From contig OY730476.1 in assembly GCA_963422735.1 (NCBI GenBank), forward strand, positions 2,816,001 to 2,880,000: a stretch of DNA of 64,000 nt, read 5' to 3'. Position numbers and translations under genes: made by a program. This document shows positions 11,910-53,411 of this stretch, piece by piece (within the stretch, counting starts at the first letter, position 1; each line of letters starts with the position of its first letter). This stretch comes from Candidatus Latescibacterota bacterium. GTDB lineage: Bacteria > Latescibacterota > UBA2968 > UBA8231. The notes under the pieces are model-generated. The model searched no databases, was not told where the DNA came from, and saw only the letters and a list, made by a program, of their open reading frames with translations.

Positions 11910-11963
11910 CCTTCGGCAGAAGCGGTATTTCCCGTGGCGCATCTAACCCGGAGACGACCCCTC

Positions 11964-12807: not shown

Positions 12808-12883
<76 letters not shown>

Positions 12884-25801: not shown

Positions 25802-26545
25802 ATGTCCGATAAACAGACACCCGACGACCTGATTTGGGGTCGCCACCCCGTGCTCGAAGCCCTGCGCGCCGAGCACCCCTTGCGCCGCCTGCTCGTCGCC
25901 AAGGGCGCACACGGCCCCGTCATCGACGAAATTTTCGCCCGTGCGCGGCAGGCCCACATTCCCTATGATCTGCGCGACAAGGCACAGCTCGACCGCCTCG
26001 CCGGCCCCCGCCACCAAAGCGTCGTCGCTTACGCGGCGGCCGCGCCGTACGCAGACTTTGACCACGTGCTTGCCCACCTGCCGACCTCGGCCCTGCTCCT
26101 CTTTCTCGACCAAGTACAGGATCCCCACAACCTCGGCGCCATCATCCGCAGCGCCCATGCGCTCGGTGCTCAGGGCGTAGTCGTACCAGCCCGCGAAGCT
26201 GCCGGCCTCTCTCCAGCCGCGCTCAAGGCCGCAGCCGGTGCGGCCCAGCACCTGTCCGTCTGCCGAGTTGACAACCTGCAAAAGGCCCTACAAAAAGCCG
26301 CGGCCTGTGGGCTTTTCATCGCCGGACTCGACGCCCGAGGCGAACAGCCCTTGACGGCCGCGGACTTTGCCCAATCCTGCGCCCTAGTCATTGGCAGCGA
26401 GGGCAAGGGGCTGCGGCGCATGGTGCAGAAGCGCTGCGACGCACTCTTGCACATCCCCATGCAGCGCGAAGCCATCGGCTCGCTCAACGCCTCTGTGGCC
26501 GCCGGCATCGCCCTGTACGAAGTACTGCGCCAGCGCCAGTCATGA
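25802..26545 (+). CDS. rlmB: 23S rRNA 2'-O-methyltransferase (RlmB/TrmH family)
   Basis: WGRHPVLEAL, QDPHNLGAIIRSA, GSEGKG, SLNASVAAG. Confidence 0.9.
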   Translation: MSDKQTPDDLIWGRHPVLEALRAEHPLRRLLVAKGAHGPVIDEIFARARQAHIPYDLRDKAQLDRLAGPRHQSVVAYAAAAPYADFDHVLAHLPTSALLLFLDQVQDPHNLGAIIRSAHALGAQGVVVPAREAAGLSPAALKAAAGAAQHLSVCRVDNLQKALQKAAACGLFIAGLDARGEQPLTAADFAQSCALVIGSEGKGLRRMVQKRCDALLHIPMQREAIGSLNASVAAGIALYEVLRQRQS

Positions 26546-28947
26546 TCGGCCTGCTGGTCCTCTGCCTAGCTCTCGCCCATCCGCGAGGCAGCGAGGCGTC
26601 CGAGATCCAACTGCAACAGGCCCGCTCCCTGCTGACCCAAGCCAAAGGCCAAGGTTTTGCATACCAAGCCACCTATATGCACTACTACGAGATCGGCGAC
26701 TCGCTCCTGTTGCAGGGACAGGCCCGCGTCTCGCACAAGGGCGCTCAGCTAGAGGCCGCCGAAATCGTCTTCCGCCGCGCCCTTGACCAAGTCGAAGCGC
26801 GGGCGACCCTCGATTCGAGTGGGCGTGTCGTCGGCCGCCCGGTACTACGCAAAGGCGACCAAACCCTGCGCGGCGAGCGCATCCTCTACGACCTATCCAC
26901 CGAGCAAGGAACCATCCTCAAAGGCAAGATCCACCGCGATAAGGGATTTTACGCCGGACGCTTGATACAGACCCTCAGCGGCACCGAGTTCCGAGTACAC
27001 CAAGGCTCGTACACCACATGCGACGCCGACCCCCCGCACTTTGACTTCTACAGCCCGCGGATCAAGGTCTTAGCCGGCGACATGGCCGTGGCGCGCCCTG
27101 TGTATTTCCGCATCAAAGAGCGGCGGCTGTTGTGGATTCCCTTCTACGTATTCTCGCTGCGTGAAGACCGCCAGACCGGGCTTTTGACGCCGAGTTTTGG
27201 GCAACGCGCCCTTAGATTTGGGGCGCTTCAAAGCGAGTGGGAACTGCGCAACTTGGGCTACTATCTCGCGCCCAACGACTATTGGGACCTATCCCTAGCA
27301 GCCGACCTGCGGCAGCGCTCGGGCTGGCTAGGGCGCGCCCGCCTCAACTACGCCGCACGCTACCGATTTAGAGGGCACGTCAGCACCCAGTTCGAAAACC
27401 GCCAAGAGGGCCGCACGGCCGCGCACAACTGGCGGCTGGAACTCAGGCACAGCCAAGAGCTAGGCCGCGACGCGAGCTTGCGGGCCAACGGCACCTTCCA
27501 GAGCAACAACAGCTTTGCCCAAGACAATAGCGCGAGTCTCCAAGACCGCCTCAACCGCACCCTGCGCTCCAACCTCAGCTACTCTCGGCGGTGGCGCGGC
27601 TCGGGCAACAGCTTCGGCCTGAAAGCAAGCCAAACCAAAAATCTCGACACCGAGACGTTCTCCACCATTCTGCCCGAACTCAGTCTGCGCAAAAGCCGCA
27701 AGCCGATTTGGGGCCGAGCGGGCCAAAGCCGTCAAAGCCGCCAAAACCTCCCCTGGTACAGTCGCATGTACTACGACGGCAACGCCAGCCTGCGCAACAC
27801 TCGGCGCGGTACTCGCACGGACACGACCAGCCAAACCAGCGCTCAAGTAAGCTGGCGCGTCAGCGCGCAGTACCGTCCCTTCTCTTGGTTCAATTTTAGC
27901 CCGGCACTCAACCAAGACTGGCGCGACCAAGATCTGCGCGAGAGCGCAACCCGCAGTCGGCGCAGCGACCGCTTCTCGACCCGCGCGGCCCTGAGCCAGA
28001 CCTTCTACGGGCTTTTCAACCCGTCCATCGGCCCGCTTCAAGCCCTGCGCCACGTGCTCAAACCCAGCATCTCGTTCAACTATCAAGCCTCCCGCGCCGA
28101 CACCGGCGGCGTCTTGGGCTTTGGCGGCGACGGCAGCCGGCTCCAACACCGGCGGACATTGAACTTGCGCCTCGACAACACCTTCTGGGCCAAAATCCTG
28201 CGCGAAGAAGAAGAGCAGAAAGTGCGACTAGTCCAGCTCAATTTCTCTACGGCCTATAAATTTGAGCAAAAGGAAAAGCGGCTAGACGACCTGCAAACGA
28301 CCCTAAGCGTCGAGGCAGGTCGCTACCTGAATTCGCGACTGACTTTGCGCCACAGGTTCTACGACGAGCAGAATCAACTGCATCTATTGGCACCGCGCCG
28401 CAGGCAGCTTGAAGTGCGGACCTCAGCTAGCTGGTCGCGGCGGTCGGGGAAGGCGCGCTCGGACGCCGCCTCCAGCCGCTACGGACAGGGTGATTTTGAC
28501 GCCTCCAGTCGCTACGGACAAAGCAGCTTCGGCACCGCCAGTCCCTACAGCCGAGAATCCTTCGGCTTTGAAAGCGGCCTCATGCACGACATCGACAACC
28601 GCCGTCGCGGCAGCCGCTTCCAGCTCAGCCACTACTTCTCGCACCGCCGCGCCACGACTACTAGCACCATTCGCTCTTGGGTACGGGCTGCGGCCGGCTT
28701 TAACTTGGGGTCGCGCTGGCATTGCAATTATTCGCTCAACTACAATCTACGTGCCCCGAGGACGCGGCTGTTGGCCATCAAGCGCATCACTTACGAACTG
28801 TTGTCCCTGCAAAAGGAATTCCACGACTGGACCGCAACTTTCAACATGCAACCAAGTACCTTCTACAAAAACCGGGCGTTCTTTTTTAAGGTGCAGTTGA
28901 AAGACATTCCGCAACTCAAACTCGAGCGCGGCCAGCGAAGATTCTAA
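26542..28947 (+). CDS. lptD: LPS assembly protein LptD-like outer membrane protein
   Basis: Signal-like N-terminus, GSYTTCD..PHF, TGLLTPSFG, GYYLAPNDYWD, alternating beta-strand pattern. Confidence 0.75.
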   Translation: MIGLLVLCLALAHPRGSEASEIQLQQARSLLTQAKGQGFAYQATYMHYYEIGDSLLLQGQARVSHKGAQLEAAEIVFRRALDQVEARATLDSSGRVVGRPVLRKGDQTLRGERILYDLSTEQGTILKGKIHRDKGFYAGRLIQTLSGTEFRVHQGSYTTCDADPPHFDFYSPRIKVLAGDMAVARPVYFRIKERRLLWIPFYVFSLREDRQTGLLTPSFGQRALRFGALQSEWELRNLGYYLAPNDYWDLSLAADLRQRSGWLGRARLNYAARYRFRGHVSTQFENRQEGRTAAHNWRLELRHSQELGRDASLRANGTFQSNNSFAQDNSASLQDRLNRTLRSNLSYSRRWRGSGNSFGLKASQTKNLDTETFSTILPELSLRKSRKPIWGRAGQSRQSRQNLPWYSRMYYDGNASLRNTRRGTRTDTTSQTSAQVSWRVSAQYRPFSWFNFSPALNQDWRDQDLRESATRSRRSDRFSTRAALSQTFYGLFNPSIGPLQALRHVLKPSISFNYQASRADTGGVLGFGGDGSRLQHRRTLNLRLDNTFWAKILREEEEQKVRLVQLNFSTAYKFEQKEKRLDDLQTTLSVEAGRYLNSRLTLRHRFYDEQNQLHLLAPRRRQLEVRTSASWSRRSGKARSDAASSRYGQGDFDASSRYGQSSFGTASPYSRESFGFESGLMHDIDNRRRGSRFQLSHYFSHRRATTTSTIRSWVRAAAGFNLGSRWHCNYSLNYNLRAPRTRLLAIKRITYELLSLQKEFHDWTATFNMQPSTFYKNRAFFFKVQLKDIPQLKLERGQRRF

Positions 28948-28959
28948 GAAGCAGTGGTT

Positions 28960-28985
28960 AGCCCCCACATCGCGCCCTGGGGGCT
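28960..28985. terminator. Hairpin between convergent lptD and island operon
   Basis: AGCCCCCA / TGGGGGCT stem; no U tract. Confidence 0.3.
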
Positions 28986-29000
28986 GAGTGAGCCAACGAC

Positions 29001-29286
29001 TCAAGCGGATTGGGTGGGCGGCTCTCGTTCGAGGCGGCCGACATTGACTTCGCGGAAGGCTTCGACGATCTGAACCGGGAGTTGGTGTGGCTCGGCAATG
29101 CAAGCGGCCATCTGCCGCACCCGCTGCATAGACAGCTGCGATGGGAAGCAGTGCGCGATAGGCGGCCGTGCAGCGAGCCTGTCGCCAGCCCAATGGCGTG
29201 AGGGGATAGTCCACAAGGCGATGGGAAAACTCGCCGGTCTGATTGGCGCGGTTTTTGCCGTGGCGCGCCAGCCACACCGCGTTCAT
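29001..29286 (-). pseudogene. Histidine phosphatase (PGAM-like) remnant
   Basis: MNAVWLARHG...DYPLTPLGWRQA..AVYA, then another frame QRVRQMA..I...FREVNVG; truncated; ATGA overlap with upstream gene. Confidence 0.7.
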
Positions 29287-30347
29287 CGGTTCAGAATCTC
29301 CAAGACGTGTTCTAGCAGAGGCTGCTCCTCGGCGGCCAGTGCGTCGAGCATCTCGCTCGCCCGCGTGAGCGTGTCAGGCCGTTGATGCGTTTTCCAGCGC
29401 AACAGCACTAAGCGCAAACTGCGCGTCTTGCGCTCGATGGCACCAAAGCGCAGCCCAAGCTGCGCCGCCGGATCGAGATAGCCCCGCGCTTCCATGTACT
29501 GCAACCGCGCCTGCATACCCGTTTTGTGCTCCCACAGGATGCGCCATGAGATGTCGCGATAGGCGGCCGGGTCTTCCAGTTCGCGCCGGAGGAACACATA
29601 GACGTCCCTGCCCCAAAAGCCACCCTCTCGCGGCGCAGCCAACAGCCGGTAACGCTGCGCCGTGTCGGCGGCGAACAGATAGTCGGCCAACTGTTCGGCC
29701 ACTGCACACGGGTCGAAGGTATACCATTGGTCGGGCAAATACTTGTAGAGAAATACTCGCGGGCGATCTTCCATCGACGAAAGAAACCATGCCGGCAGGG
29801 GCCGGCCGGCTTGCGATACCTGCTGCATGTGGCCTTCGCGGGTGAACGAACACGCCCGTTCCATGACGACAAACGGTACGCGAGAGATCGCGTATCCACC
29901 CTGTTGGTCGAAGCCGGACAGCAGCAAGGTCCGTTCCTCGGTATCGTAGCCGGACACGAGCACTTCGTGGATGAAGTGATGCCGCTGATAGTGCGGTCGG
30001 TTGGGCAGATAGAAGAAATCGACATCGGTCTGGACGTAATAGCCGCGGTCAATACACGAGACGATCCATGAGATAATATCCGCGGTAGCCAGCCCTAGCA
30101 GGTGGCGGTCAACGGTCTGGACGTCGAGAAAGGGACAGGTGGAAAAGTAGAGATGGCGCACCTCATGGCGGGTGCAGAAGGGATGGGTGTAGAACTTCAG
30201 CTCTTCGCCGGGGAAATTGAACAGTTGAATGTGGGTGCTGTATAGCCACGGCAGGTAGGTATCCGCTTGGGCGAGGATGGACAGCGGGTACGCATGGAAT
30301 AGATAGGAACGGATCGGCGGCGGATGCAGGGGCAGGGTGTGCTGCAA
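29283..30347 (-). CDS. BtrH-like (papain/NlpC-P60-fold) protein, candidate ACP-dependent acyltransferase
   Basis: WIVSCIDRGYYVQTDVDFFYLP...HHFIHEVLVSGYD resembles BtrH_N-type domains; likely TTG start at 30347, right after the ACP. Confidence 0.55.
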   Translation of the reverse strand: MQHTLPLHPPPIRSYLFHAYPLSILAQADTYLPWLYSTHIQLFNFPGEELKFYTHPFCTRHEVRHLYFSTCPFLDVQTVDRHLLGLATADIISWIVSCIDRGYYVQTDVDFFYLPNRPHYQRHHFIHEVLVSGYDTEERTLLLSGFDQQGGYAISRVPFVVMERACSFTREGHMQQVSQAGRPLPAWFLSSMEDRPRVFLYKYLPDQWYTFDPCAVAEQLADYLFAADTAQRYRLLAAPREGGFWGRDVYVFLRRELEDPAAYRDISWRILWEHKTGMQARLQYMEARGYLDPAAQLGLRFGAIERKTRSLRLVLLRWKTHQRPDTLTRASEMLDALAAEEQPLLEHVLEILNR

Positions 30348-30351
30348 GGAG

Positions 30352-30609
30352 TCAATCCGCCATCCGCTTGCCGACGACGTATTCAGCCAGCGCATTCACC
30401 GAGCCAAACAGTTCGACGGTCAGTTCGTCGTCTTTGACCGCGATGCCGAAGGCCTCCTCAATGGCGGCGACGATCTCTAAGGTGGCCATCGAATCGAGCT
30501 CCATACCCCCAAACAGGGCCTCGTCGTCGGGGATCTCCGCCGGGTCCACGTCCAATCCAAGGGCAGCGACGATCAGGCCCTTGATCTGCGCTTTTAATTG
30601 CTCGGACAC
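30352..30609 (-). CDS. Acyl carrier protein
   Basis: 85 aa, acidic; LFGGMELDSMATLEIVAAIEEAFGI with phosphopantetheine Ser. Confidence 0.9.
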   Translation of the reverse strand: MSEQLKAQIKGLIVAALGLDVDPAEIPDDEALFGGMELDSMATLEIVAAIEEAFGIAVKDDELTVELFGSVNALAEYVVGKRMAD

Positions 30610-32486
30610 GATGCAGACTCCTCGGCAAAATGGTTGACCACCGTATCCACCATCCGCTGTTGGCCTTCCTCTGACAAAATCGACACCGCCGGCAAGCTAA
30701 AACGATCTTCAAGCCGATTTAGGATACGGGCGATTTCTTCCGCGGTCATCGAATCCGCCTTGACGAAAGTGCGGCCGTAAGCAGCGCGGATGTACTTTTT
30801 TTGGTCGCTCATCGCCAAAAGCAGGGTCGGTGCTTTGGCAAGGGCGCGCAGGCTGTTGATGGTGTCTTGGATATACTCGTCGGCGTCAATGCTGTTGACT
30901 ACGAGGATACACGCATCCGGCTTGGTGCCCAGCAGAAAGGCCGTCGAGGTCAAAGAATGGGTGCGGTGTTCATGCACATCGTAGGGAATAGTGCCCGACT
31001 GCGAGCCGACCACGATGAGATCGGGCTGCTTCTGCTGGCTGAGTTGCCGCAGTTTGTAATCCAGATAGGGGACGTAGTATTGCAACGGCAGCGACACATT
31101 AGGGGCGTATCCCATAGGGAAGGCCCCGTCCATGCCAAACAGTGCCGCATGGTGCTCGGTGCCGATCTGACCGACTCTGTAACCGAGGTGCAAAAGGTGG
31201 CGGCGCAGGATCAGTTGCAAGGTGAACTTGCCCTGTTGGGCACTCGTGCCAAACACGCCCAACACTGGCACATCAACCGGACCATAGGCCGGCTCGGCTT
31301 GGAGGGCTTGCTGCACGTCGTCGGACGCGACCGAGGGATACGTCAGATGTAGCCCCTTCTTCCGGGCAAGATCGTATAGGTCGCCATACTCGTCTTGGGG
31401 CACGGCGAGGAAACTGAAAACATGGCAGTTGTGCTCCAAGGCGGTCTCAATGGATGTACGCAGCACGTCTTGCTTGCCAATCCGCCCTAACTGATCGACA
31501 TAGCCAAGGATGAGCGTATCCGCTTCCTCAAGGACCGAAGCGAGCCGAGGCCGAATGCGTACCCCGATGGCGGGTAGGCCAAGTACCGTGCCCGCATCTT
31601 GGCCTACCAGCCCCTTGCCCACCGGATCGGCAATACCCGCAATCTCAAAGGCGAGCAAATCTCGCGCCCGGACCAGCGCATGCATTTCCTTGTTGAACGG
31701 GTAGAGTGCCGCCTTCTGAATCCAAGTGAAGTCCGAGGATGGAGCGCAAGGAAGAGACACAGTCGTCGGACGCGGGCGCTCACGCTGGATTAGTTCCGGC
31801 GTCCCTTCTAGTGCGTTGGCCTGCAACAAATCGCGCACCTGTTCCAGCGGCGCACCCGGATGCGCTTGGCGAATCATGGCGACCACGCCAGTGACGTGCG
31901 GCGCGGCGAAGCTAGTGCCCGACATCATCAGATACGGCGGATCACTCCAGCAAACCCGTTGGGCATCGCCACGGGCGACGCATTCGATCTCGTGCCCCGG
32001 ACGGTAGTAATACCCATAGCGGCCCCGCACCTTGCCTCCCGCAACGCCGATGACGTCCGGCAAGACCGCCGGATAACTTTCGCGCCCGTCGTTGTGTTCG
32101 GCCGCTACCAGAATGACGCCGGCTTCGCGAGCTTGGCGACAGACATCGGCGAGCCCGTCGCGGAAAGCAACATCCGTCGTGCCCAAGCTGAGGTTGACCA
32201 CATCCATCCGCTGCTCAATCGCCCAGCGGATCGCCGCGAGGAGAAAGGGAGGGTCGGCCGTTAGGGATTCATCGAAGAGGCGAACATCGTACAAAGTTGC
32301 GGTCGGCGCGATCTGGAGAATAATGCCCGCGCAAGCCGTGCCGTGACCCGCACCAACCGCCGCTTGCCGAGGCACCGAATCGAGGCACACCTCGTGAACC
32401 GCGCCGATCTTTTCGTGTGTCGAGTCAATACCCGAGTCGATGATCGCGACGCGGACGGGATGATCAGATTGATTCGTCAAGAGCAT
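30594..32486 (-). CDS. S8 subtilase fused to DUF1611/TIGR04066-like P-loop domain
   Basis: Triad IIDSGID / GHGTACAG / SGTSFAAPHV; no signal peptide; C-half KAALYPFNKE...GLVGQDAG, PVLGVFGTSAQQGKFTLQL, GYRVGQIGTE, PDLIVVGSQSG. Confidence 0.8.
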   Translation of the reverse strand: MLLTNQSDHPVRVAIIDSGIDSTHEKIGAVHEVCLDSVPRQAAVGAGHGTACAGIILQIAPTATLYDVRLFDESLTADPPFLLAAIRWAIEQRMDVVNLSLGTTDVAFRDGLADVCRQAREAGVILVAAEHNDGRESYPAVLPDVIGVAGGKVRGRYGYYYRPGHEIECVARGDAQRVCWSDPPYLMMSGTSFAAPHVTGVVAMIRQAHPGAPLEQVRDLLQANALEGTPELIQRERPRPTTVSLPCAPSSDFTWIQKAALYPFNKEMHALVRARDLLAFEIAGIADPVGKGLVGQDAGTVLGLPAIGVRIRPRLASVLEEADTLILGYVDQLGRIGKQDVLRTSIETALEHNCHVFSFLAVPQDEYGDLYDLARKKGLHLTYPSVASDDVQQALQAEPAYGPVDVPVLGVFGTSAQQGKFTLQLILRRHLLHLGYRVGQIGTEHHAALFGMDGAFPMGYAPNVSLPLQYYVPYLDYKLRQLSQQKQPDLIVVGSQSGTIPYDVHEHRTHSLTSTAFLLGTKPDACILVVNSIDADEYIQDTINSLRALAKAPTLLLAMSDQKKYIRAAYGRTFVKADSMTAEEIARILNRLEDRFSLPAVSILSEEGQQRMVDTVVNHFAEESASCPSN

Positions 32487-32527
32487 CTTTTTGGTATGCG
32501 TGACGCAGGCCACATTCAGGGTTACTA

Positions 32528-33393
32528 CTACTCTCGGTTAAAGTAGAAGGTTAATTCTGGCTTTTGGCGGGCGCGTATGGCAATCGTTGAATCCATGCCA
32601 ATCGCCGTCGCTAAGTCCGCTCTGGCCAACGCCGTTTCACCGCGCCAGCGCGAATGCGGGCTCTATAATACCACGCAACACCGGTTTCGTCGTCGAGGGA
32701 TACCGCCCGATTCAGCGCGTCAATTCCTTCGTCTAGTCGGCCTGTACCGATAAAGAGCATGCTGCGCTTGATCCACGACGCGAGGTGATCCGGGTCGTGC
32801 TGCAACGCGGCCGCAAGGGCCGCTTCAGCAGCCTCATAATCCTTTTCTTGCATGTGGAGCGAACCAATACGTCCCCAGAAATGCGCCAAATGGGCGTCCG
32901 TGGAATCGGCGACCAAGCAGGTTTTGTAAACCTGTACGGCTTCCTCTACATGTCGTAGATCGCGTAGAAGATCGCCCGTTCGCTGGCATAATCCCACGTT
33001 TTTGGGGTCTAAGCGGAACGCCGCAGAATAAAATGCTAGTGCTTGAACTGAATCCTTCATGGCCAGACAGGCATCGCCCTTGCTCTTCCACAGCCAAGGA
33101 TCGTTTTCGTCATATCGCAGAGCCGTATTCAGCGCGTCGAGCGCACGGCGGGGATCCTCCAGCGATAGGTAACCCTTTGCAAGTGCTTTCCAAGTGCGCA
33201 ACGAATCACCTTCTAAAGCAAGCACTTGTTCATAAGCGCGAAGGGCCATCCGGTATTCACGATTCGCCATAAGTCGGTCTCCGTGTTGCAAGTAGGTATC
33301 TCCATCCGATAGATCATACCTTACTATTATGTACAACAGTGAAAGAATAGTTATGGCATTGATCACCACAGTAGAGACGATCCAGTTTTTCAC
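32528..33393 (-). CDS. Membrane-anchored TPR protein (1-nt frameshift near 32645)
   Basis: N-terminal TM, then TPRs; the track ORF stops at 32611 but the adjacent frame continues RGETALARADLATAIGMDS...NRE, ending in TAG TAG TAA. Confidence 0.7.
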
Positions 33394-34133
33394 AACACAG
33401 GATTCAACCTATAAACGCTAGATGAGAAGACCACTTCTGCTACTATATTGGCAACGCCGTGTAGCACAACACAGGATCCAATTGAACGAGATCGTTCATA
33501 GTACATAACAAGCACGAGACCCAGTCCTAAATGGGGTAAGAGTGCTAAAATCTTCCCTTCCATGTTGTAGTGACATAATGCAAACAGTACGACATTTGCC
33601 ACAACAGCCCATACAAAAGGCAAATGCCTTTTGAGATAGGGATACAGAAGACCTCTAAATAGCCATTCCTCTACTAAGGGAATGACGATGACACCCTGTA
33701 ATACTCTTATAATTGATAAATCGATTAGGTGCATCACCGGAGGGATATAACCGGCCGATCTAGATAGATTCGCTGGAACCGTAATCAACACGACTAGGAG
33801 AACAGCCAGCCAGACCCCCGTACCCATACCATATAGAGATAGCTTGATTTGCTTAGGCACGGTTCCTACCATGAGATGATAACAGGTAAGCATCAAAACC
33901 ATAGCGGCCGCATGGGAACCAAAAAGGTAGATCGTGACGACTTTCATATCCCGCAACAGCAAGGATTCCTCAGCCCAGTTATCGACATAAGTGTTCCTGA
34001 GTGCAACAAAAAAGAATAAAGTGGCGAACTGTAGGACGACCAAGATGAGGTTCCATGGACACTCCCATTCTTGCTTTCGCATGGTGTCCCAAGTGTTGAG
34101 CACGGTTCTATAGACTGATCTCATGGTATGCAC
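33390..34133 (-). CDS. CPBP (CAAX/Abi) intramembrane glutamic protease
   Basis: PLVEEWLFRG, FALCH, HGVAN. Confidence 0.85.
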   Translation of the reverse strand: MHTMRSVYRTVLNTWDTMRKQEWECPWNLILVVLQFATLFFFVALRNTYVDNWAEESLLLRDMKVVTIYLFGSHAAAMVLMLTCYHLMVGTVPKQIKLSLYGMGTGVWLAVLLVVLITVPANLSRSAGYIPPVMHLIDLSIIRVLQGVIVIPLVEEWLFRGLLYPYLKRHLPFVWAVVANVVLFALCHYNMEGKILALLPHLGLGLVLVMYYERSRSIGSCVVLHGVANIVAEVVFSSSVYRLNPVL

Positions 34134-34196
34134 AACACACTCTAAGTACTGACAGGATCCCCTATTTATAAGGATCCTTATGATCCTGACAGATGC

Positions 34197-34481
34197 TCAA
34201 TCCTTGCCTTTGCGCCCTGTTTGCGCTTGCAATAAAGGTGCGCCTCCCAAGGCTTCCTGTTCGAGCGAAATGTTCGGATCGATGAACCATTCGACCGGCT
34301 GGCCATACAGATCGGCAAGACGGATCAGCTCTGGCGTGAAGACGGGCCGCTCACCTGATTCAATGCGGCTGATCGTGGATTGGTCGCGACCGAGCTTCGC
34401 ATAGGCGGTCTCTTGGCTGATCTGCCGGCGTTTGCGTACAAAGCGCAATCGCCGACCGATCTCTTCGGGGGTTATGGGCAT
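34197..34481 (-). CDS. XRE-family HTH regulator
   Basis: IGRRLRFVRKRRQISQE...DQSTISRIESGER...LADLYG. Confidence 0.85.
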   Translation of the reverse strand: MPITPEEIGRRLRFVRKRRQISQETAYAKLGRDQSTISRIESGERPVFTPELIRLADLYGQPVEWFIDPNISLEQEALGGAPLLQAQTGRKGKD

Positions 34482-34562
34482 AATAGATGCTCCGGGCATT
34501 GGATGTGGAAGGTATGGCATGGCCAAAATAGCGAAGGCTCGTTTTATGGAAGAAGGCTGAGT

Positions 34563-35474
34563 TCAGGGGCCTAGACCTCCAGCGAGGATGTCAGTTGCGA
34601 GGTAAATGAGGGCGTTTGTGCATCCATGAACGGCGGTGCATACGATCAGAGATCGCGTCCGTTCGTAAATAAGAGCCAAGGCTACACCTACTATAAAGGC
34701 AGGCACTAGTCTTGCCGGATCTAGGTGAACCAAGGCGAAAATCAACGAAGAGATCAATGTAGCCTTGAGCAAGCTAGTCTGCTGACGTAGAGCAGAAAAG
34801 AAAAGCCGGCGAAAAATGAGCTCTTCGACAAAAGGAAGTAAGATGATTAAAGATAGAACGTGTAAAACTATAAGCGTCGCAGGATAATCAAGTACGAAGG
34901 TTCGTTCTATCCTACTAGGGTGCAACAAATATAGATAGCTAATCCATACTGGACTGAGCATTAAAGACCAGAATACATAGAGCCGATCTCTAGGACGATT
35001 TACATACCGCCACTGATAGTAAACGGCGATAGGCTCAATACTGCTGTGTTTCTTGATAGCAATCCTAATCACAACAATAGCACCTATCCCCATTCCCACA
35101 GACCTTGAAGCTCTCATACCAGAATCAAAATCAAATTGGGCTATATTTATTGCAATAATTAGAATACAAAATACAACTATATACAAAGACGCACCCTTAA
35201 AATTGTGAGTGAATATGTAGGGCAGAATTACCAAATAGAACAAGGCTCCCAATAGAGTGCTTATAGTAATCTGATATTCTCGATATAGATCAAATCTATC
35301 TGTTGAGTAGTTCGTATCTACACCCATCTGATGTACGATAGACTCAAACAGTACTGCAGCCATACCAGTTGTGTGTCTGACCAGTAGGCCGGTTAGACAT
35401 CCGATCACGACGATACGGGTTATGGTCATAGAATTACCCAAAGCGGAACAAGTGTTGGTGTTGCCAAACTTCAA
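34563..35474 (-). CDS. CPBP (CAAX/Abi) intramembrane glutamic protease
   Basis: PFVEELIFRR, FALVH, HGCTN; many TM helices; start may be 35429. Confidence 0.85.
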   Translation of the reverse strand: MKFGNTNTCSALGNSMTITRIVVIGCLTGLLVRHTTGMAAVLFESIVHQMGVDTNYSTDRFDLYREYQITISTLLGALFYLVILPYIFTHNFKGASLYIVVFCILIIAINIAQFDFDSGMRASRSVGMGIGAIVVIRIAIKKHSSIEPIAVYYQWRYVNRPRDRLYVFWSLMLSPVWISYLYLLHPSRIERTFVLDYPATLIVLHVLSLIILLPFVEELIFRRLFFSALRQQTSLLKATLISSLIFALVHLDPARLVPAFIVGVALALIYERTRSLIVCTAVHGCTNALIYLATDILAGGLGP

Positions 35475-35492
35475 AAATTCTTCCCAGATGTA

Positions 35493-35522
35493 TAGGGCTG
35501 AGGCCTTGAGGCCTCAGCCCTA
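35493..35522 (-). terminator. Perfect hairpin 3' of the precursor gene (stabiliser or attenuator)
   Basis: TAGGGCTGAGGCCT-TG-AGGCCTCAGCCCTA; no U tract on the coding strand. Confidence 0.65.
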
Positions 35523-35538
35523 ACGTTAGTCCCGACCC

Positions 35539-35949
35539 CTAATAACTTCCAGCCTGAGCGTTGTTGTGGTCGTCTGCATATGGGTCATTACAGGTGCCCC
35601 CATAATACCCACCATTATTACTGCCACTCGGAGGTATAGACCCTGCCGAACTCGAACCGCTGTTCTCCGTAGCCCAATCCCAAACATCTTCTGCGGCATC
35701 CGCTATGGCATTCCCCGCTTCCTCTAACGCGTGGGTAATCTGTTCCTCTGCTTCGGAGGCCCATACGACTAGGGCAACACCAGCACCAACGACTGGATTT
35801 GCAGTGGCTGCGGTAGCCGCAGCACCAATTGCCGCAACCGTACATCCGTGTTTCACGTCGTGCAAGTCGAGTCCGTCCTTTTCGTTGTGACAAGCCTCTA
35901 TGGCTTTAGTATCGTAAACCCTCCGAGGGGGTTTGCAGAGAATCTGCAT
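35539..35949 (-). CDS. Putative bacteriocin/RiPP precursor (136 aa)
   Basis: GGAGG RBS; leader-like N-terminus ending KAIEA-C; Ala/Gly/Val hydrophobic core; Ser/Gly/Asn-rich tail; sits between the ABC exporter and CPBP genes. Confidence 0.7.
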   Translation of the reverse strand: MQILCKPPRRVYDTKAIEACHNEKDGLDLHDVKHGCTVAAIGAAATAATANPVVGAGVALVVWASEAEEQITHALEEAGNAIADAAEDVWDWATENSGSSSAGSIPPSGSNNGGYYGGTCNDPYADDHNNAQAGSY

Positions 35950-36125
35950 GTGTTTCCTCCGTTTTAATGGGTGGTTTTTATTAAACTTGTGAAGATACGG
36001 TGCTATGCATTGTACGACTCACTCCTTTCTCCTATGGGGCTGCATAGCTGTGTACCCCGCTGTGTACGTGTGCATCGGATTATGCCTCGCAAGCATCCTC
36101 CTGATGAACGCCTTGCGAAAACCCT

Positions 36126-37841
36126 TCATATCCGCGCCATTTTGTCAAACAACGCGGCATAAGCTCCGCCGGTGTTCAGCAGCCAATCGTGGGTCCCTTG
36201 TTCGGCTACGCTTCCGCTTTCCAATACGACGATCTGATCGGCCGCTCGAATGGTTGACAGACGATGGGCAACGATGATCGTGGTGCGCCCTTCCTGCACC
36301 GTCTTGAGTGCCTCGTGAATGTGGTATTCCGACTCCGCATCCAAGGCCGAAGTCGGTTCGTCCAAAATCAGAATGGGCGTATCCATCAACAGAACGCGTG
36401 CCAGCGCAATGCGCTGCCTTTGTCCCTCGGAAAACTTGACGCCCTGTTCTCCAACTAGGGTATCGTATCCCTGGGGCAGAGTAGTTATAAAGTCATGGAT
36501 ATAAGCAGCACGGGCAGCGTCCTCTATCGTCCTAAGAGGAATATCCTGATTAAACGCCAAGTTCTCTTTAATGCTGCCCTGAAACAGAGTACTTCCCTGT
36601 AAGGCAAAGCCGATCTGCCGCCGCAGCGACGGCAAGCGAAACGCCCGGATGTCCTGCCCGTCAATGGCGACACTGCCTTCTGTCGGGTCATAAAATCGGG
36701 GGACCAACTTGGCCAACGTCGATTTTCCTGACCCGCTTCTGCCTACTAAGGCTGTCGTCGTACCCGCTTCGATAACCAAATTGATCCGCCGCAAGACCGG
36801 GTGCTGGCCATCGTAGGATAAACTCAGTTCATTGAATTCAACTTGACCCGCCGTAATCGTGAGTGGCGGTGCTTTGGGATCATCTTGGATGGCCGGACGT
36901 ATGTGGTAGATTTCAAAAAAGCGGTTGATATGCACCAGAGTCAGTTCAATACTGCGAATGAGCTCGATTAAATTCTTGATCGGCCCATAGAGAAAACCCA
37001 CGTACGCCGTGAAGGCCATAAAACTACCCAAGGACAAATTCCCCGAAAGAATCTGTGCCCAACCGTACCAGCTATAGGCCAAGGTCCCGCTCGTATTAAT
37101 GAGCCCTCCAACAAACCCCGATCCACCCGAAAATAGAGCCGACCGGACGCGAAGGTTGGCGAGGACAGTGAAGAGGCCCTCCAGTTTCTCGTAAAACCTC
37201 GCTTCCAATCCTAGCGCCTGCACGGTCCGAATACCGTTGAGCGACTCATAGTTCTTCGCCGATAGCTCAGCGGAACGCTCCGCGATTTTCTCGGAGAAAC
37301 GGCGCATATACTTGCGGGTAATAACCACAAGCAATGTATCGAAAGGCAAAACAGCTATACTGATAAGTGCTAACTTCCAGTTGATGTAGAATAGAATCGG
37401 CGGGAAGATCAGTAGCTGAAGGGAGTTCATAATGAAGGTGTTTATGATGCGGATTACGCTGCTAATAGAACTCCTCATATCCCTGAAACGCGAGAGGATT
37501 TCCCCGGTCTCTTTCTGATCGAAAAAACTAAAATCGAGCGACCGTACATGTCGATAGAAAAGAGATTGGAAATCGAAACCAAGACGTACACCCACGCATT
37601 GGCCAAAATAGCTACTAAGGAAACTCACGCCTCCCAATCCTGTGGAAACAGCGGCCCCAAGCAGCAGAGCAAACGCTAGTAAATTCCAATCTTTATGAGG
37701 ATACACATCGTCAATGAGTATTTTTGTGAAATACGGTCCTGGTATCTGCAACAACAAGACCAAGACACCGACTAGTAGAGACTGAGCGATATAGCGCCAG
37801 TACGGTCGCAAAAGCCGTATGATCTGTATAATTTCATTCAT
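36126..37841 (-). CDS. ABC exporter, TMD+NBD, no C39 peptidase domain
   Basis: GRSGSGKST, FSEGQRQR, LILDEPTSALD, VAHRLST. Confidence 0.92.
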   Translation of the reverse strand: MNEIIQIIRLLRPYWRYIAQSLLVGVLVLLLQIPGPYFTKILIDDVYPHKDWNLLAFALLLGAAVSTGLGGVSFLSSYFGQCVGVRLGFDFQSLFYRHVRSLDFSFFDQKETGEILSRFRDMRSSISSVIRIINTFIMNSLQLLIFPPILFYINWKLALISIAVLPFDTLLVVITRKYMRRFSEKIAERSAELSAKNYESLNGIRTVQALGLEARFYEKLEGLFTVLANLRVRSALFSGGSGFVGGLINTSGTLAYSWYGWAQILSGNLSLGSFMAFTAYVGFLYGPIKNLIELIRSIELTLVHINRFFEIYHIRPAIQDDPKAPPLTITAGQVEFNELSLSYDGQHPVLRRINLVIEAGTTTALVGRSGSGKSTLAKLVPRFYDPTEGSVAIDGQDIRAFRLPSLRRQIGFALQGSTLFQGSIKENLAFNQDIPLRTIEDAARAAYIHDFITTLPQGYDTLVGEQGVKFSEGQRQRIALARVLLMDTPILILDEPTSALDAESEYHIHEALKTVQEGRTTIIVAHRLSTIRAADQIVVLESGSVAEQGTHDWLLNTGGAYAALFDKMARI

Positions 37842-38229
37842 CTGTTGCTTTTCGGCCCGACCCCTCCATCTCTGGATCGCGCTGTAAGTTCGCCTACCTT
37901 TTTCTCATCAAAGTAGCTAAAGCTCAAGCCACTCAGATGTTGATATAGGCCATAACCAACTCCGATACCTACACGCATACTGAGATTGTGGTCAAAATAG
38001 CCGCGCAAATGGCTGACCAATCCCGTCATTACTGCTACGCCGGCATTGAAAACGAGGACGAATTCCAGCAGGCTAACACTCTTGGATGGGTAAACATTGT
38101 CGATAAGAATTTTCGTGACGTAGGGTGGTATCAAGGCAATCAGTGCTAAAAGGCCACTCACGGCTACAGATTTCATCATCAACCCTCGATGAGCCCGTAT
38201 CAGTGCCATTCCCCTAAGGTACTCGTCAT
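37838..38229 (-). pseudogene. Internally deleted second ABC exporter half
   Basis: PPYVTKILIDNVYP and LSFSYFDEKKVGELTARSRD parallel PYFTKILIDDVYP and LDFSFFDQKETGEILSRFRD of the next gene; ends after ~130 aa. Confidence 0.7.
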
Positions 38230-39468
38230 CTCCGCTGACTCCTGCCGATGGAAATCGTGTCTCGCCACCGGCTCCACAGACTGCAACAGCTTCTTCCACA
38301 ACAGCTCCACGATCCTTCCCCTCTCTACCACCACCTTAACCTCGGCATTCATCCCATACGCCAGCGCATACACCTGCTTCCCATCCCACACCTGCGGATC
38401 GCGAATCGACACTTTTATTGGATAGACGGTGCCCTCCGCAGCGTTTCCCACCACCGGCACAGCCGATACCGCTTCCACCGTCCCCTCAAACACCTTGTAT
38501 TCCGTATGCGGAAACGCATTCACATACAGACGCGCCGGCTGCCCGATCTCTATCTTGGGCAGGTCGGTTTCCTTAACCATAATCCGCGCTAGCCACCCAT
38601 CGGTCTGAGCTAATTCGAGAATCGCTTCTCCCTCTTGGAGACGATCCCCCACCCGCTGCTCCAACTGACCCGCCAGCACCGTGCCCGCCGCCGGTGCCCG
38701 GATCGTGTGCTTGGCCAGTCGGTTTTCCAACCGCCGGCGTTCCTGCTCTATCTTCTCGCGCTGTTTTTCCAAGGTGTGGAGTTCGGCTGCTCGTCCTTCC
38801 ACGGCCTGAAGCCGCTGCTGGATTCGTTCCAGATCGGCTTCTGCCTGCTGCAACAGGGCGTTGCTCAGCCGCACCGGCAGTAGTTGCTCCAATGGCTGGC
38901 GTACCACACGGACGGGCAACACACCGGCCGAGTAGATGCTTTGTTCGGCCACGACCTGCTCCTGTTGGATGCGCATTCGCTCTACTTGCCGCTGGGCATG
39001 GGCGACCTCGGCGTGCCTAATGTTGCGCTCTTGCTCCATCTGCTGCTGAATGGCTCGCTGCTGGCTCTGGTTTACTTCGAGGTCCTTTTCTGTTTTTTGT
39101 AGTTGGATCCGCCAGTCAGTATCGTCGAGCGTGACCAACGGCTGCCCCTTTTCTACCGGCTGCCCCTGTCGGACGTGTATCTGCTGGATGATCCCCGCGA
39201 TCTCGGCCTTGACCCGATGCCGATGCCGCGGCTCGATGACGCCCTTGCCCTCCACGGTCATATCCATGCTGAAATGCCAGCTCAACATGCCGGCGAGCAC
39301 CAGCAAGCACCCCACCAACATCAGAATCACCAAGAGAAAGGAGCGCACGAAACGGAAGCCTGGTCCGTGGAATTCTTCCCCTATACTCAGGACAGTGCGG
39401 CGGCGATCCTGCAATGAGGGACGGTCGTTTTGCACCAGCACTTGGGATTCAGCGGTTAGAGCCGGCAT
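38200..39468 (-). CDS. HlyD-family membrane fusion protein
   Basis: N-terminal TM, VRQGQPVEKGQPLVTLD, coiled coil, IRAPAAGTV, GMNAEVKV. Confidence 0.9.
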   Translation of the reverse strand: MPALTAESQVLVQNDRPSLQDRRRTVLSIGEEFHGPGFRFVRSFLLVILMLVGCLLVLAGMLSWHFSMDMTVEGKGVIEPRHRHRVKAEIAGIIQQIHVRQGQPVEKGQPLVTLDDTDWRIQLQKTEKDLEVNQSQQRAIQQQMEQERNIRHAEVAHAQRQVERMRIQQEQVVAEQSIYSAGVLPVRVVRQPLEQLLPVRLSNALLQQAEADLERIQQRLQAVEGRAAELHTLEKQREKIEQERRRLENRLAKHTIRAPAAGTVLAGQLEQRVGDRLQEGEAILELAQTDGWLARIMVKETDLPKIEIGQPARLYVNAFPHTEYKVFEGTVEAVSAVPVVGNAAEGTVYPIKVSIRDPQVWDGKQVYALAYGMNAEVKVVVERGRIVELLWKKLLQSVEPVARHDFHRQESAEMTSTLGEWH

Positions 39469-40112
39469 CTTCTAACTCCACGCGCTGAAAACAAGGCCCA
39501 GAGCACGAGCCGCCCAAGGTTCCTTTTGTATGAGGAAGGTTCACACCGTTGGTGCCTGCGAGCAACCGCGCATATCGGCGCACACGCAGAGACTCCCAAG
39601 GCATACGGTGCTGCGGCAATAGAGCCGTATAGACTGCTGCTAACCCGGCACCGAATGGAGCACCGGACGTCAGTAAAGCAATCGTCCGGCCCTTGATGGA
39701 ACTTAAGAGATTGTAGCCTAGTGGCTGAAAAATTGAGGGGGGGAGGGAGGGGGAATGGTGGTAAATTTTTGTTTTTTAACGATCTATGGCATCTATTTAA
39801 GGCGAAACCTTGGCACTGGAAATAGGATGAGGTCATTGCGGCAGGCTTTGCTTGCAGCAACGTCATCTCAAATGTGGGGTGATTTATCATCTTCCAGTTC
39901 GTCCTCCGACGGGCGGAACAACCTGTTCCGCTTCAGGGCTACAAGCACAAGGAAACGCCAAAAGGTTTGTCAAGAGAAAATTTTCGCTGGGTTTTGCGAC
40001 GCCGCGGCTGAAGGCGTCAGCGTCAATGCGGGCTGCGAGCCAGTCGGGAACGCAGTTCTGAGCCATCCCTCCTACCTCCCCAAGTGCCCCAGTGACCCGC
40101 TTCTAGGAGCGG

Positions 40113-40140
40113 TTGACAGTAGTACGGCGGGAGATACATT
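40113..40140 (+). promoter_or_regulatory. Putative sigma70 promoter for dtd operon
   Basis: TTGACA-16 nt-TACATT. Confidence 0.4.
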
Positions 40141-40216
40141 TAATTTTTATGGTCGATTTCCTTGGCAAATTTTTCCAGATGCCGACGGCGTCCCCGCTGA
40201 TCTTGCACTCCCTCCC

Positions 40217-40660
40217 GTGAAAGTCCTCGTCCAGCGCGTCAGCCAAGCTAGCGTCCATGTAGATGGCGAGCTCCACGGCCAAATCGGCCAAGGCTTGCTC
40301 CTACTCGTCGGCTTCGGCCCTAACGACGGCGACCAAGCCCTGCGCTTCTGCGCTGAAAAGTGCGCTCACCTGCGCATCTTTGCCGACGACCAAGGCAAGA
40401 TGAATCGCTCGGTCCTCGACATTGGCGGCGGCGTACTCGCCATTTCGCAGTTTACCCTGTACGGCGACTGCCGCAAGGGCCGCCGCCCGAGCTTCGTCCA
40501 AGCCGCCCCACCCCCGGTTGCCCAGTCCCTCTACGAGCACTTTCTCGACCTCCTCGCCGAACAAGGCTTGTCGCCCCAACGCGGCGTCTTCGGCGCTTAC
40601 ATGCAGGTTGAGATTCACAACGACGGCCCAGTCACCTTGATGGTGGAGTCGCCAGCGTGA
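40217..40660 (+). CDS. dtd: D-aminoacyl-tRNA deacylase
   Basis: VQRVSQASV, SQFTLYG, GRRPSF, NDGPVT. Confidence 0.95.
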   Translation: MKVLVQRVSQASVHVDGELHGQIGQGLLLLVGFGPNDGDQALRFCAEKCAHLRIFADDQGKMNRSVLDIGGGVLAISQFTLYGDCRKGRRPSFVQAAPPPVAQSLYEHFLDLLAEQGLSPQRGVFGAYMQVEIHNDGPVTLMVESPA

Positions 40661-53200: not shown

Positions 53201-53411
53201 GCTCCTCGATGCGCTTGCAGACGGCGTCTTCGACCTCGGCCGGGGTCGCACCCAGATAGGGCACTTGGATTTGCACCTGGTCGAGCGACATCTCGGGGAA
53301 GGTTTCTTTCTTGGTCTGCATCATGGAAAACAGGCCGCTCAACATGATGAAACCCATCAGCAGATTGGCGGCGACGTGGTTTTTCGCCATCCAAGATACG
53401 GGTGCTTTCAC
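50208..53411 (-). CDS. RND efflux permease (AcrB family)
   Basis: NHVAANLLM, GIVVDDAIIVGEN, GVVVNDS, RFRPILLTSLTT. Confidence 0.93.
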   Translation of the reverse strand: MKAPVSWMAKNHVAANLLMGFIMLSGLFSMMQTKKETFPEMSLDQVQIQVPYLGATPAEVEDAVCKRIEERVRGLEGVRRVRSTASEGMGSVSIELERGADMDRLLDDIKNEIDRIDTFPTEIEEPVIKELTRRNQAIDVVLYGDVEEKALKVAAELVRDDLRSSGVISQVELKGVRVDEIAIEVSEEALRRYALTFAQVADAVRRTSIDLPAGSVESEDGAILLRTQGLMRSGREYEEVVVLTRSDGTALKLKDVGTVVDGFEDTDLISRFNGQPAAVVQVFRIGDQNALDISDYVRQYIEDKRPTLPAGIHIGYARDDARILRGRIDLLVRNARLGLVLVFICLSLFLDLRLAFWVMMGIPISFLGAFVLMEPFDASINMLSLFAFIVALGIVVDDAIIVGENIFAHRVKGKSFGRAAIDGALEVGTPVMFSIMTSIAAFMPLFFVEGMMGKFMSVIPVIVISVLLLSLIESLFILPAHLSSEGHGPLNRLFCRVFIRPLDWHARLVVLFDRGLKYVIRNAYQPALRLALAHPISSAALALALMLCTAGLVAGGHLKFVFMPDIGSDWVTISINMPQGTTATQTAKVVRHIEEKAIVLRDQLDAEREDGDSIYRNVFTYIGDQPTARRSSFSGVPGARGQGHLAEVTIELQPSEERDLDSAEIESRLRQLVGEVPGPESIVFSSSLFSVGNPIEVELASANFDQLLLAVDRVKGKIAEYSGVGDIQDSFEEGKLEMKLQLEPQARTLGLTLADLARQVRQGFYGDQALRFQRGSDDVRVMVRYPKDERRNLGDVRSMRVRTPSGAEVPFAEVATVTLGHAYASIQRTDGQRVVRVSASVDDQVANADEINRDLEAFFLPALVQDYPDLRYRFGGEQKEQQDSLQSLFFNFIIALFAIYVLLAVPFRSYTQPLVVMSAIPFGIIGAVWGHLLMGLDLALLSLFGIVALSGVVVNDSLVLLTFYNQRLREGTPHEEALISAGTARFRPILLTSLTTFFGLLPMILEKSLQAQFLIPMAVSLGFGILFATFIILLGVPVGMRLLLGVQGIWGRLSGDGTVEVAPVTGS

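Follow-up and report, generated by a model that had tools for sequence, protein, structure and literature searches.

The nearest described entity to the locus analysed here is the CLI_3235/CcpM peptide maturation system of NCBIfam (TIGR04065-04069), which is defined by genome context. In Paenibacillus, as far as the excerpted study goes (PMC10731318), the TIGR04066-type protein, the carrier protein and the subtilase are separate genes, and the function of TIGR04066 is merely guessed. Two other groups of systems bear on the comparison. In lipo-RiPPs (lipidated peptides that are made on the ribosome and modified after translation), namely goadvionins, lipoavitides, lipolanthines and selidamides, N-acylation by a GCN5-related N-acetyltransferase (GNAT) follows leader removal (excerpt of PMC13647313). 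CtaG, BtrH and AsbE use a Cys-His-Asp triad, and enzymes of the CcbD/CtaG/AziU fold take carrier-protein-bound substrates (excerpt of PMC12865890). Here we describe an island between lptD and dtd in a 64,000-nucleotide stretch of a Candidatus Latescibacterota bacterium (assembly GCA_963422735.1, contig OY730476.1, positions 2,816,001 to 2,880,000; hereafter the window), and we hold with moderate confidence that this island serves the production, modification and export of a small ribosomal peptide or protein, that is, a bacteriocin-like RiPP, and protection from it. The reading draws on gene content, predicted folds, motifs that are intact except for one Cys, linkage in related genomes and the inserted state of the island, and all chemical steps given below are inferred from these.

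Like the TIGR04065-04069 system, the island combines a TIGR04066-like protein with a carrier protein and a subtilase. The TIGR04066-like part is the DUF1611-like half of a fusion protein, and it aligns across the whole TIGR04066 profile (residues 267-630 on profile positions 2-360 of 361, E 7e-34, 117.4 bits), which bears out a link that the initial annotation of the stretch had drawn. Relatives of the fusion in Lachnospiraceae and Melioribacteraceae, moreover, adjoin radical S-adenosylmethionine (radical SAM)/SPASM maturases. The differences are equally clear: the score of the window fusion lies below the TIGR04066 cut-off of 200, the subtilase is fused to the TIGR04066-like domain, and there is no radical SAM protein (TIGR04068, CcpM). 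The acyl carrier protein (ACP) of the window has no TIGR04069 match at E <= 0.01, and its small open reading frame (ORF) has no TIGR04065 match, nor did any of ten candidate precursors at E <= 0.1. The window adds a Cys-less CcbD-fold protein, two CPBP-family proteins and a TPR protein. The window cluster is a version of this system that lacks the radical SAM enzyme, has its protease fused and has gained a papain-fold partner. The first description had placed it outside every recognised RiPP class, a view that has to give way to this relationship; its statement that radical SAM, LanM, YcaO and non-ribosomal peptide synthetase (NRPS) genes are missing agrees with the Pfam and NCBIfam searches, in which none of these domains was matched in the island.

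The fusion gene (30594..32513, minus strand) encodes a 639-aa protein in which a subtilase domain (Peptidase_S8, 97.9 bits, cut-off 21.8) precedes a domain of DUF1611/DgcN fold. The catalytic triad of the subtilase is present as D26 (IIDSG), H57 (GHGT) and S201 (GTSFAAP), and the domain matches Subtilisin BPN' at E 1.9e-26. No signal peptide is visible in the fusion sequence, and the protein is predicted to be cytoplasmic. The best NCBIfam match of the S8 domain is the QhpE-like family (141 bits). QhpE is an intracellular leader peptidase that matures quinohemoprotein amine dehydrogenase. The window domain resembles it in being small and in having neither a prodomain nor a signal peptide, and it covers profile positions 1-213 of 219; it differs in scoring under the cut-off of 165, in the absence of Qhp genes and in its fusion to DUF1611.

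The second half of the fusion was recognised by the DUF1611 C-terminal profile (DUF1611_C, 47.2 bits, cut-off 25), and the N-terminal profile reached 17.7 bits (cut-off 22.6). Four other fusions scored 83-126 bits against TIGR04066. A structural model of residues 266-639 (mean predicted local distance difference test score, pLDDT, 87.4) has the two-domain fold of TM0796, Ava_3511 and DgcN (Foldseek, 1e-14), with Z scores in VIA-align 2 of 29.4 to 2g0t (root-mean-square deviation, rmsd, 2.9 over 309 aa), 28.7 to 2obn and 24.8 to 7xrj, the last of which upholds the DgcN connection suggested at the outset. The shared architecture, a Rossmann-like domain plus a P-loop domain, extends over about 305 residues, and the GT....GK.T loop of the fusion is common to TM0796. 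After these structures, the C-terminal half most resembles the ATP-dependent amidoligases CobB and BioD (Z about 15). Across 19 fusions, 23 positions are invariant, including FNKEMH, the GT....GK.T loop, GTEH and QSG, and because of this conservation the DUF1611 half looks like an active enzyme. DgcN itself acetylates D-glutamate with acetyl-CoA. The window domain differs from the DgcN/DUF1611 proteins in sequence (15-19% identity), in its fusion to a protease, in its pairing with an ACP and in carrying motifs of its own (FNKEMH, GTEH and QSG). The likeness to DgcN is one of fold only; 7xrj is named "N-acetyltransferase DgcN" by its PDB title, and the protein is mentioned in the excerpt of PMC12363236.

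The fusion gene shares a 16-nt overlap with the gene for a dedicated ACP of 85 aa (30352..30609, minus strand; PP-binding, 44.3 bits, cut-off 20.8). Ser40 in its LDSM motif is invariant in all 21 aligned cluster ACPs and is the predicted site of phosphopantetheine attachment.

The genomic context of this pair was compared in 32 other loci with a full-length fusion (designated by L numbers) and in 41 related genomes; small ACP genes were located in the loci by six-frame searches with hidden Markov models (HMMs). The fusion family comprises at least 957 proteins at E <= 0.001 among 8,000 scored candidates, and the best 120 relatives all carry PF00082 plus PF07755. The fusion was present in 28 of the 41 genomes, often in several copies, with a patchy distribution within the genus (15/24 genomes). 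The ACP is the next gene after the fusion in 23 of the 32 loci and lies within 2 kb in 28, and the pair occurs in Latescibacterota, Gemmatimonadota, Ignavibacteriota, Planctomycetota and Lachnospiraceae. Since the core pair recurs in dozens of loci, the gene arrangement is not a chance one. A HlyD adaptor was found in 19/32 loci, a full ATP-binding cassette (ABC) exporter in 21/32 and a CPBP gene in 9/32. The proposal that the genes form one conserved functional cluster is thereby borne out: the fusion and the ACP are an obligate pair, with which the BtrH-fold protein and the ABC/HlyD exporter co-occur across phyla.

The partner of this constant core varies. A CcbD-fold protein of the window type stands beside it in 9/32 loci, Lachnospiraceae loci included; a canonical BtrH_N plus DUF4872 protein in three loci and in a paralogous cluster of the same genome; a GNAT-like gene directly upstream in three loci (L016, L018 and L026) and again in the own-genome paralogue (L045); and a 900-aa PCP-Condensation protein in two (PCP, peptidyl carrier protein). 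In a Latescibacterota locus (L013:8264-9616), one gene joins the ACP to a transglutaminase-like core domain of papain fold. Together, partner types from acyltransferase families were found in 18/32 loci. Each of these families is known for acyl transfer from a thioester to an amine, and because the swaps stay within such families, the pattern suggests that the group on the ACP ends up on an amine, and no other argument for that destination is as strong. The constancy of the DUF1611 domain suggests in turn that it performs a constant step, most simply the charging of the ACP. Radical SAM/SPASM maturases and Cys-rich small ORFs accompany this core in Melioribacteraceae and Lachnospiraceae, and their presence ties the family to ribosomal peptide maturation.

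The window-type partner is encoded at 29283..30395 (minus strand), with a product of 354 aa if translation starts at 30347. The BtrH_N profile (PF14399) reached 27.2 bits against a cut-off of 29.7 and covered only positions 78-132 of 134. A search of the PDB with the sequence returned nothing at E <= 1, and a profile search gave only E of about 1 to AziU3; the relationship to the CcbD fold is therefore visible only at the level of structure. The model (pLDDT 85.8) matched AziU2/U3 at 1.7e-9, CtaG at 6e-6 and CcbD at 5e-5 in Foldseek, and VIA-align 2 gave Z scores of 19.1 to CcbD (rmsd 3.5, 285 aa), 18.2 to AziU3/U2 and 16.3 to CtaG. The bipartite fold, a papain-like N-terminal domain followed by a helical C-terminal domain, was matched over model residues 7-352. 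As in the CtaG, CcbD, BtrH and AsbE ligases and in AziU3/U2, the carrier gene is adjacent, and putative equivalents of the His and Asp are conserved: among 178 relatives, H127 is conserved in 169 and D135 in 150, both of which lie near the places expected for H128 and D144 of CtaG by position only. Unlike those ligases, the window protein has Ser in place of the catalytic Cys, possesses a W-E-H-K motif in the helical domain whose E-H-K residues are nearly invariant in the 178 relatives, sits in a ribosomal-peptide cluster and remains under the BtrH_N threshold. When structural-alignment range offsets were used to map the Cys column, as distinct from a residue-level superposition, C19 of CcbD and C11 of CtaG came out at Ser14 in the numbering of the 354-aa form, or at Tyr15 if the CtaG offset is taken. 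The column is occupied by G in 90, S in 43, T in 15, A in 14 and C in 8 of the 178 relatives, so that 162 have G, S, T or A. The initial annotation had called the protein BtrH-like, and this holds for the fold; it does not hold for the catalytic Cys.

The Cys-less CcbD-fold clade is large: a limit of E <= 0.001 takes in 5,822 representatives, and one of E <= 1e-30 takes in 1,269. One of its members, P0186, is a 2,689-aa megasynthase of KS-C-A-PCP organisation (ketosynthase, condensation, adenylation and PCP domains) with two tandem Cys-less domains of the window type C-terminal to the PCP. From this placement after a PCP, the Cys-less clade may still act on carrier-bound thioesters. The tandem domains of P0186 sit where a chain-release domain would be expected. 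In the literature consulted, we found no link from DUF1611 or the BtrH fold to RiPPs and no experimental study of the S8-DUF1611 plus ACP pair; the genome-mining supplement of the CtaG paper may list the Cys-less clade.

The candidate substrate is a leader-bearing small protein of 136 aa (35539..35949, minus strand), a putative precursor or bacteriocin. A strong Shine-Dalgarno sequence, GGAGGA, lies at 35955-35960, 5 nt before the ATG, and a perfect hairpin directly follows the gene on its 3' side (35493..35522, minus strand), with a 14-bp stem formed by fully complementary arms of 14 nt each (35493-35506 and 35509-35522). As no T-run adjoins it, the hairpin was not called in the terminator scan and is better taken as a possible attenuator or stabiliser than as a clear intrinsic terminator. 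Relatives of the 136-aa protein (the p136 family) were found as 10 database entries and in 2 loci. The N-terminus MQTLCKPPRRVYDxKAIEACH is invariant among them; behind it come a hydrophobic stretch rich in Gly and Ala, an acidic helix (EAEExITH) and a Gly/Ser-rich tail of which two or three interchangeable types exist. A looser leader-like motif, M..L.K....Y followed by V-Y-x-Y or IEAC, stands at the start of small ORFs (59-136 aa) at 11 loci in Latescibacterota, Gemmatimonadota and Melioribacteraceae, with a weaker twelfth in L013; as most of these loci were in the training set of the motif HMM, the figure of 11 describes them and is not a test. Related clusters thus contain precursor-like ORFs with a conserved N-terminal motif, and the refuting conditions that the initial annotation had named for gene co-occurrence and for such an ORF do not apply. 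Clearer and independent support for a precursor role comes from the linkage of p136 to the fusion across the 41 genomes: the family is present in four of them, always at a distance of 3-5 kb from a fusion whose identity to that of the window is 81% or more, and in none of the 13 genomes without a fusion. The status of the 136-aa protein as a RiPP precursor is accordingly proposed on its N-terminal motif, Shine-Dalgarno sequence and hairpin and on this linkage to the protease fusion.

Class II bacteriocin loci offer another point of comparison. CPBP (Abi) proteins serve as immunity proteins in such loci. In common with them, the window has a small protein with a Gly/Ala-rich hydrophobic segment, a CPBP gene next after it and an adaptor alongside its ABC exporter, and the small protein and adjoining CPBP diverge faster than most island genes: identity to L001 is 42% for the 136-aa ORF, 63% for the XRE-family gene and 72% for the first CPBP, and 80-94% for the exporter and maturase genes. 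Such a fast-diverging small ORF and CPBP would resemble a bacteriocin/immunity pair. The window departs from these loci in having no double-glycine leader and no C39 domain and in adding the subtilase-DUF1611 fusion, the ACP and the ligase-like gene.

In the mechanism that we propose, the 136-aa protein would be translated at a high level, its conserved 21-residue N-terminus acting as recognition or leader part, and the cytoplasmic subtilase domain of the fusion would remove this leader. The DUF1611/DgcN-fold domain would charge the phosphopantetheine of the ACP with a small acyl or aminoacyl group, which might come from an acyl-CoA or from activation with ATP, and the CcbD/CtaG-fold protein would move the group from the ACP thioester to an amine of the peptide, either at the freshly exposed N-terminus or on a Lys side chain. 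Secretion of the product would fall to the ABC exporter with the HlyD adaptor, the two CPBPs would protect the producer or finish maturation, and the XRE protein would regulate the island. The two enzyme roles may also be reversed, with the DgcN-like domain as an N-acyltransferase that uses acyl-ACP instead of acetyl-CoA. An order of trimming and then acylating has precedent, as known lipo-RiPPs are N-acylated after leader removal, and the four sister clusters with a GNAT-like gene beside the fusion (L016, L018, L026 and L045) are a further likeness to those pathways. The window differs from them in having no GNAT and no fatty acid synthase (FAS) or polyketide synthase (PKS) genes, and in a candidate transferase of papain-like fold. 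With neither FAS/PKS genes nor a loader in the island, the prefix "lipo-", under which the cluster had first been described, is unsupported.

That the island represents a new RiPP class, in which a leader peptidase-DgcN fusion charges an ACP and a Cys-less CcbD-fold ligase acylates the trimmed peptide, is a tentative proposal about which we have considerable doubt. If true, a ribosomal peptide would for the first time be seen to be acylated or aminoacylated in a thiotemplated way that uses no GNAT, and the system would be a modular one, in which the transferase (BtrH-fold, GNAT, condensation or transglutaminase-like) is swapped around a protease-DUF1611/ACP core. The mechanism would give a function to DUF1611/TIGR04066 and to the Cys-less CcbD-fold clade, would bring carrier-protein chemistry into ribosomal peptide maturation beyond the GNAT route, and would offer engineering a set of peptide acyltransferases that is modular by nature. 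A compact island of twelve genes between clear boundaries would lend itself directly to testing as an expression construct. The S8-DUF1611 plus ACP pair is widespread. The finding is of solid interest to natural-product enzymology.

Several observations weigh against a peptide-modifying island of this kind. The role of DUF1611 as an ACP loader is a guess, since its only characterised relative, going by the PDB title, is an N-acetyltransferase, and the island has no recognisable ACP-loading enzyme (adenylation, acyltransferase, FAS or PKS). The catalytic Cys of BtrH, CtaG and CcbD is missing from the CcbD-fold protein, and AziU3/U2, which Foldseek ranked first for that protein, is no transferase. 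As a RiPP precursor, the 136-aa protein would be long; it matched no precursor family, and an ORF with the leader motif was found in only 9 of the 32 other loci, on 8 of which the HMM was trained. The loci are kin, with near-duplicates (L005/L022, L030-32, L021/L023 and L010/L011), and their counts overstate independence. Two gene remnants, an ABC fragment and a His phosphatase, lie within the island. Finally, a contig of metagenomic run X9 (depth 46.7) joins position 28950 to 32952 with near-zero cover between them, a joint based on a side of 40 letters, with the likeness threshold at 90%. The join connects the end of lptD to the middle of the TPR gene, and the 4-kb deletion removes the His-phosphatase remnant, the CcbD-fold gene, the ACP, the fusion and part of the TPR gene; the remaining island is covered at a depth of about 45. 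The join therefore points to a natural variant with the precursor, CPBP and exporter half and no maturase half.

Such a variant would be expected if the island held two independent modules, one for a small thiotemplated, non-ribosomal metabolite, built by chemistry like that of closthioamide, the butirosin side chain or petrobactin, and one for an unmodified class-II-like bacteriocin with CPBP immunity. CtaG, BtrH, AsbE and CcbD all serve non-ribosomal pathways on carrier-bound substrates (excerpt of PMC12865890), a window-type domain terminates a PKS-NRPS protein, and in minimal clusters such as L014 (HlyD, fusion and ACP) no small ORF was detected. A small-molecule pathway would hardly explain why the protease is fused to DUF1611 in all of the 120 best relatives, nor would it explain the peptide-modifying radical SAM/SPASM maturases and Cys-rich ORFs beside the relatives in Lachnospiraceae and Melioribacteraceae. 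The p136 family occurs only beside a window-type fusion (4/4), and the island has no ATP-grasp, CoA-ligase or decarboxylase genes such as those pathways contain. We therefore regard two separate modules as unlikely and prefer a single island for a modified ribosomal product.

The island extends over 11,272 bp (28948..40219), from the stop of lptD (26542-28947, plus strand) to the start of dtd, which encodes a D-Tyr-tRNA deacylase domain (from about 40220, plus strand). Its 12 ORFs, all on the minus strand, lie between the two genes and were named with Pfam and NCBIfam, in which the 136-aa ORF has no family; every gene listed in the initial annotation is present there in that orientation. In five of five same-genus genomes without a fusion gene, lptD and dtd are adjacent, with a gap of about 116 bp; as the two genes are direct neighbours there, the 11,272 bp are an insertion. 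The GC content is 0.40-0.55 within the island and 0.60-0.68 outside, and the AT-rich centre reported earlier was confirmed, with 0.40 at 35000-35499 against 0.66 at 42500-42999. A variant cluster occupies the same lptD-dtd site in L005 and L022, and close versions of the cluster in L001-L004 sit elsewhere in the genome. An exporter fragment 88% identical to L004 lies beside a full exporter gene 94% identical to L001, which makes the island a recombinant of two cluster types. It is accessory, horizontally shuffled and mosaic. No integrase is encoded in the island, and the search for repeats at its ends returned nothing beyond a weak inverted repeat (29015-29035 and 39496-39516; 21 nt, 76% complementary), which is likely due to chance. 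Scans of terminators and promoters gave counts at the level of shuffled sequence (13 versus 11.0 and 8 versus 8.0, respectively).

A mosaic with remnants could also be a decaying relic that makes no product and in which only immunity or regulatory parts are still under selection. The ABC fragment and truncated His phosphatase fit this idea, as do the X9 deletion variant, the patchy distribution within the genus and the truncated or split fusions in L009, L027, L035 and L025 (the last in two frames). Decay sits poorly with the island's eleven other genes, which are all full length, have intact catalytic and attachment motifs and are free of frameshifts, with 72-94% identity to their L001 counterparts apart from the XRE gene and the 136-aa ORF. 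In runs X6 and X8 the island is present with an identity of >=99%, and the two remnants are placed at recombination joints, outside the core genes. A relic is thus improbable, and the island is more readily seen as a working peptide locus.

The genes for export lie at the dtd end of the island. The HlyD-family periplasmic adaptor (38200..39468, minus strand; 422 aa) scored 66.6 bits with HlyD_3 and 57.7 bits with HlyD_D23, and 129.7 bits with TIGR01843 (type_I_hlyD), under the cut-off of 208.65; it is 80-81% identical to the adaptors of L001, L003 and L004. The ABC remnant (37838..38299, minus strand; 153 aa) comprises the N-terminal transmembrane part only (ABC_membrane profile 10-103 of 274), and its residues 29-145 correspond, at the 88% identity given above, to the start of an intact 571-aa ABC gene (L004:7060-8775). 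The full exporter (36126..37841, minus strand; 571 aa) contains transmembrane and nucleotide-binding domains (ABC_membrane, 143.9 bits; ABC_tran, 111.7 bits) and is 94% identical to those of L005 and L022 as well as that of L001. It has no C39 peptidase domain, HlyB and bacteriocin ABC models aligning only from position ~137, and it scored 372 bits with TIGR01846, below the cut-off of 725.55. The island encodes no outer-membrane efflux protein (OEP); the window's single OEP gene (54652-56325) is part of an efflux operon of the resistance-nodulation-division (RND) type. The exporter probably works like the ABC/membrane fusion protein type, and the curated cut-offs for HlyB and HlyD of type I secretion systems are not reached.

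Between the 136-aa ORF and the fusion lie two CPBP (Rce1-like) intramembrane proteases, an XRE-family regulator and a TPR protein, all on the minus strand. CPBP1 (34563..35474; Rce1-like, 72 bits, cut-off 22.4) has intact EELIFR (217), FALVH (246) and HGCTN (283) motifs, and only the XRE gene and the 136-aa ORF have lower identity to L001 within the island. CPBP2 (33390..34133; 66.1 bits, same cut-off) has EEWLFR (155), FALCH (184) and HGVAN (225), so that both proteins combine the domain score with the EExxxR, FxxxH and H motifs of the family. The XRE-family helix-turn-helix (HTH) regulator (34197..34526) was identified with HTH_31 (49.5 bits) and HTH_3 (33.8 bits). The TPR protein (32611..33393; TPR_2, 87.1 bits, plus further TPR models) has a hydrophobic N-terminal segment and is probably membrane-anchored; its gene shares a 4-nt overlap with that of CPBP2. 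At the lptD edge of the island, the His-phosphatase remnant (28747..29286, minus strand) retains His_Phos_1 similarity in residues 4-54 only (29.8 bits), the rest of the frame running antisense into lptD; in L002, a full-length His phosphatase (138.5 bits) follows the BtrH-like gene.

The CPBPs and the neighbourhood of lptD raise the idea of an envelope or protein-sorting function, in which the ACP module would modify an envelope lipid or surface protein and the CPBPs would be of the MrtJ/MrtS/myxosortase type. The CPBPs do match proteases of sorting systems weakly, MrtJ among them (48 bits, cut-off 75), and the ACP has a weak match to an ornithine-lipid ACP (43.7 bits, cut-off 130). All such matches are under curated cut-offs, no C-terminal sorting signal was found in the 136-aa protein sequence, and the adjacency to lptD is incidental, because the site is empty in the five relatives and the same cluster type is located elsewhere in L001-L004. 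We consider this function very improbable. Still less credence is due to an anti-phage defence island built from a subtilase, an ABC-like ATPase and an HTH regulator. The PADLOC matches on which it would draw are generic (subtilase, 48 bits; IetS, 21-24 bits; mad3 on the ABC nucleotide-binding domain; HTH control proteins) and concern ubiquitous domains; no system-specific protein appeared among the 11 proteins scanned, and a content of ACP, DUF1611, CPBP and exporter fits no PADLOC system scanned. A bacteriocin-like ribosomal product remains the reading that we prefer.

The same genome has a second cluster of different build (L045, G000:C1:1206500-1226400). It opens with a histidine kinase and a LuxR-type response regulator, after which come a GNAT-like protein, a DUF5128 beta-propeller, an ABC transmembrane part, an S8-DUF1611 fusion with 60% identity to that of the window, an ACP, a 211-aa unknown protein and canonical BtrH_N plus DUF4872; the last two genes are for an RND adaptor and an AcrB pump. 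Between the ACP and the canonical BtrH gene, several clusters encode a conserved protein of about 205 aa that neither Pfam nor NCBIfam matches (L045:13876-14511, L005:12344-12967 and L025:12254-12868; also in L022 and L007), and 57 positions are invariant across the three sequences. Several clusters without a p136-type ORF have six-bladed DUF5128/DUF4934 beta-propellers upstream of the fusion (L002:881-2038, L007:2539-3714 and 4750-5940, and L045:9278-10540), which are possible substrates. Four relatives of the fusion were considered as candidates for in-frame TGA codons and selenocysteine, and the TGAs proved to be the genes' own terminal stops. The upstream neighbour of the fusion gene in L013 resembles UshA-like (seleno)proteins.

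Elsewhere in the window, the RND efflux operon (OEP, HlyD-type adaptor and AcrB) occupies 50208-56325. The sole Rfam match, distant from the island, is a tRNA-Lys(CTT) at 12808-12883. Three genes for PhyH-family dioxygenases are found in the 64 kb (2740-3552, 11934-12776 and 58022-58798), and a PhyH domain also terminates a 535-aa protein encoded after the ACP in L011.

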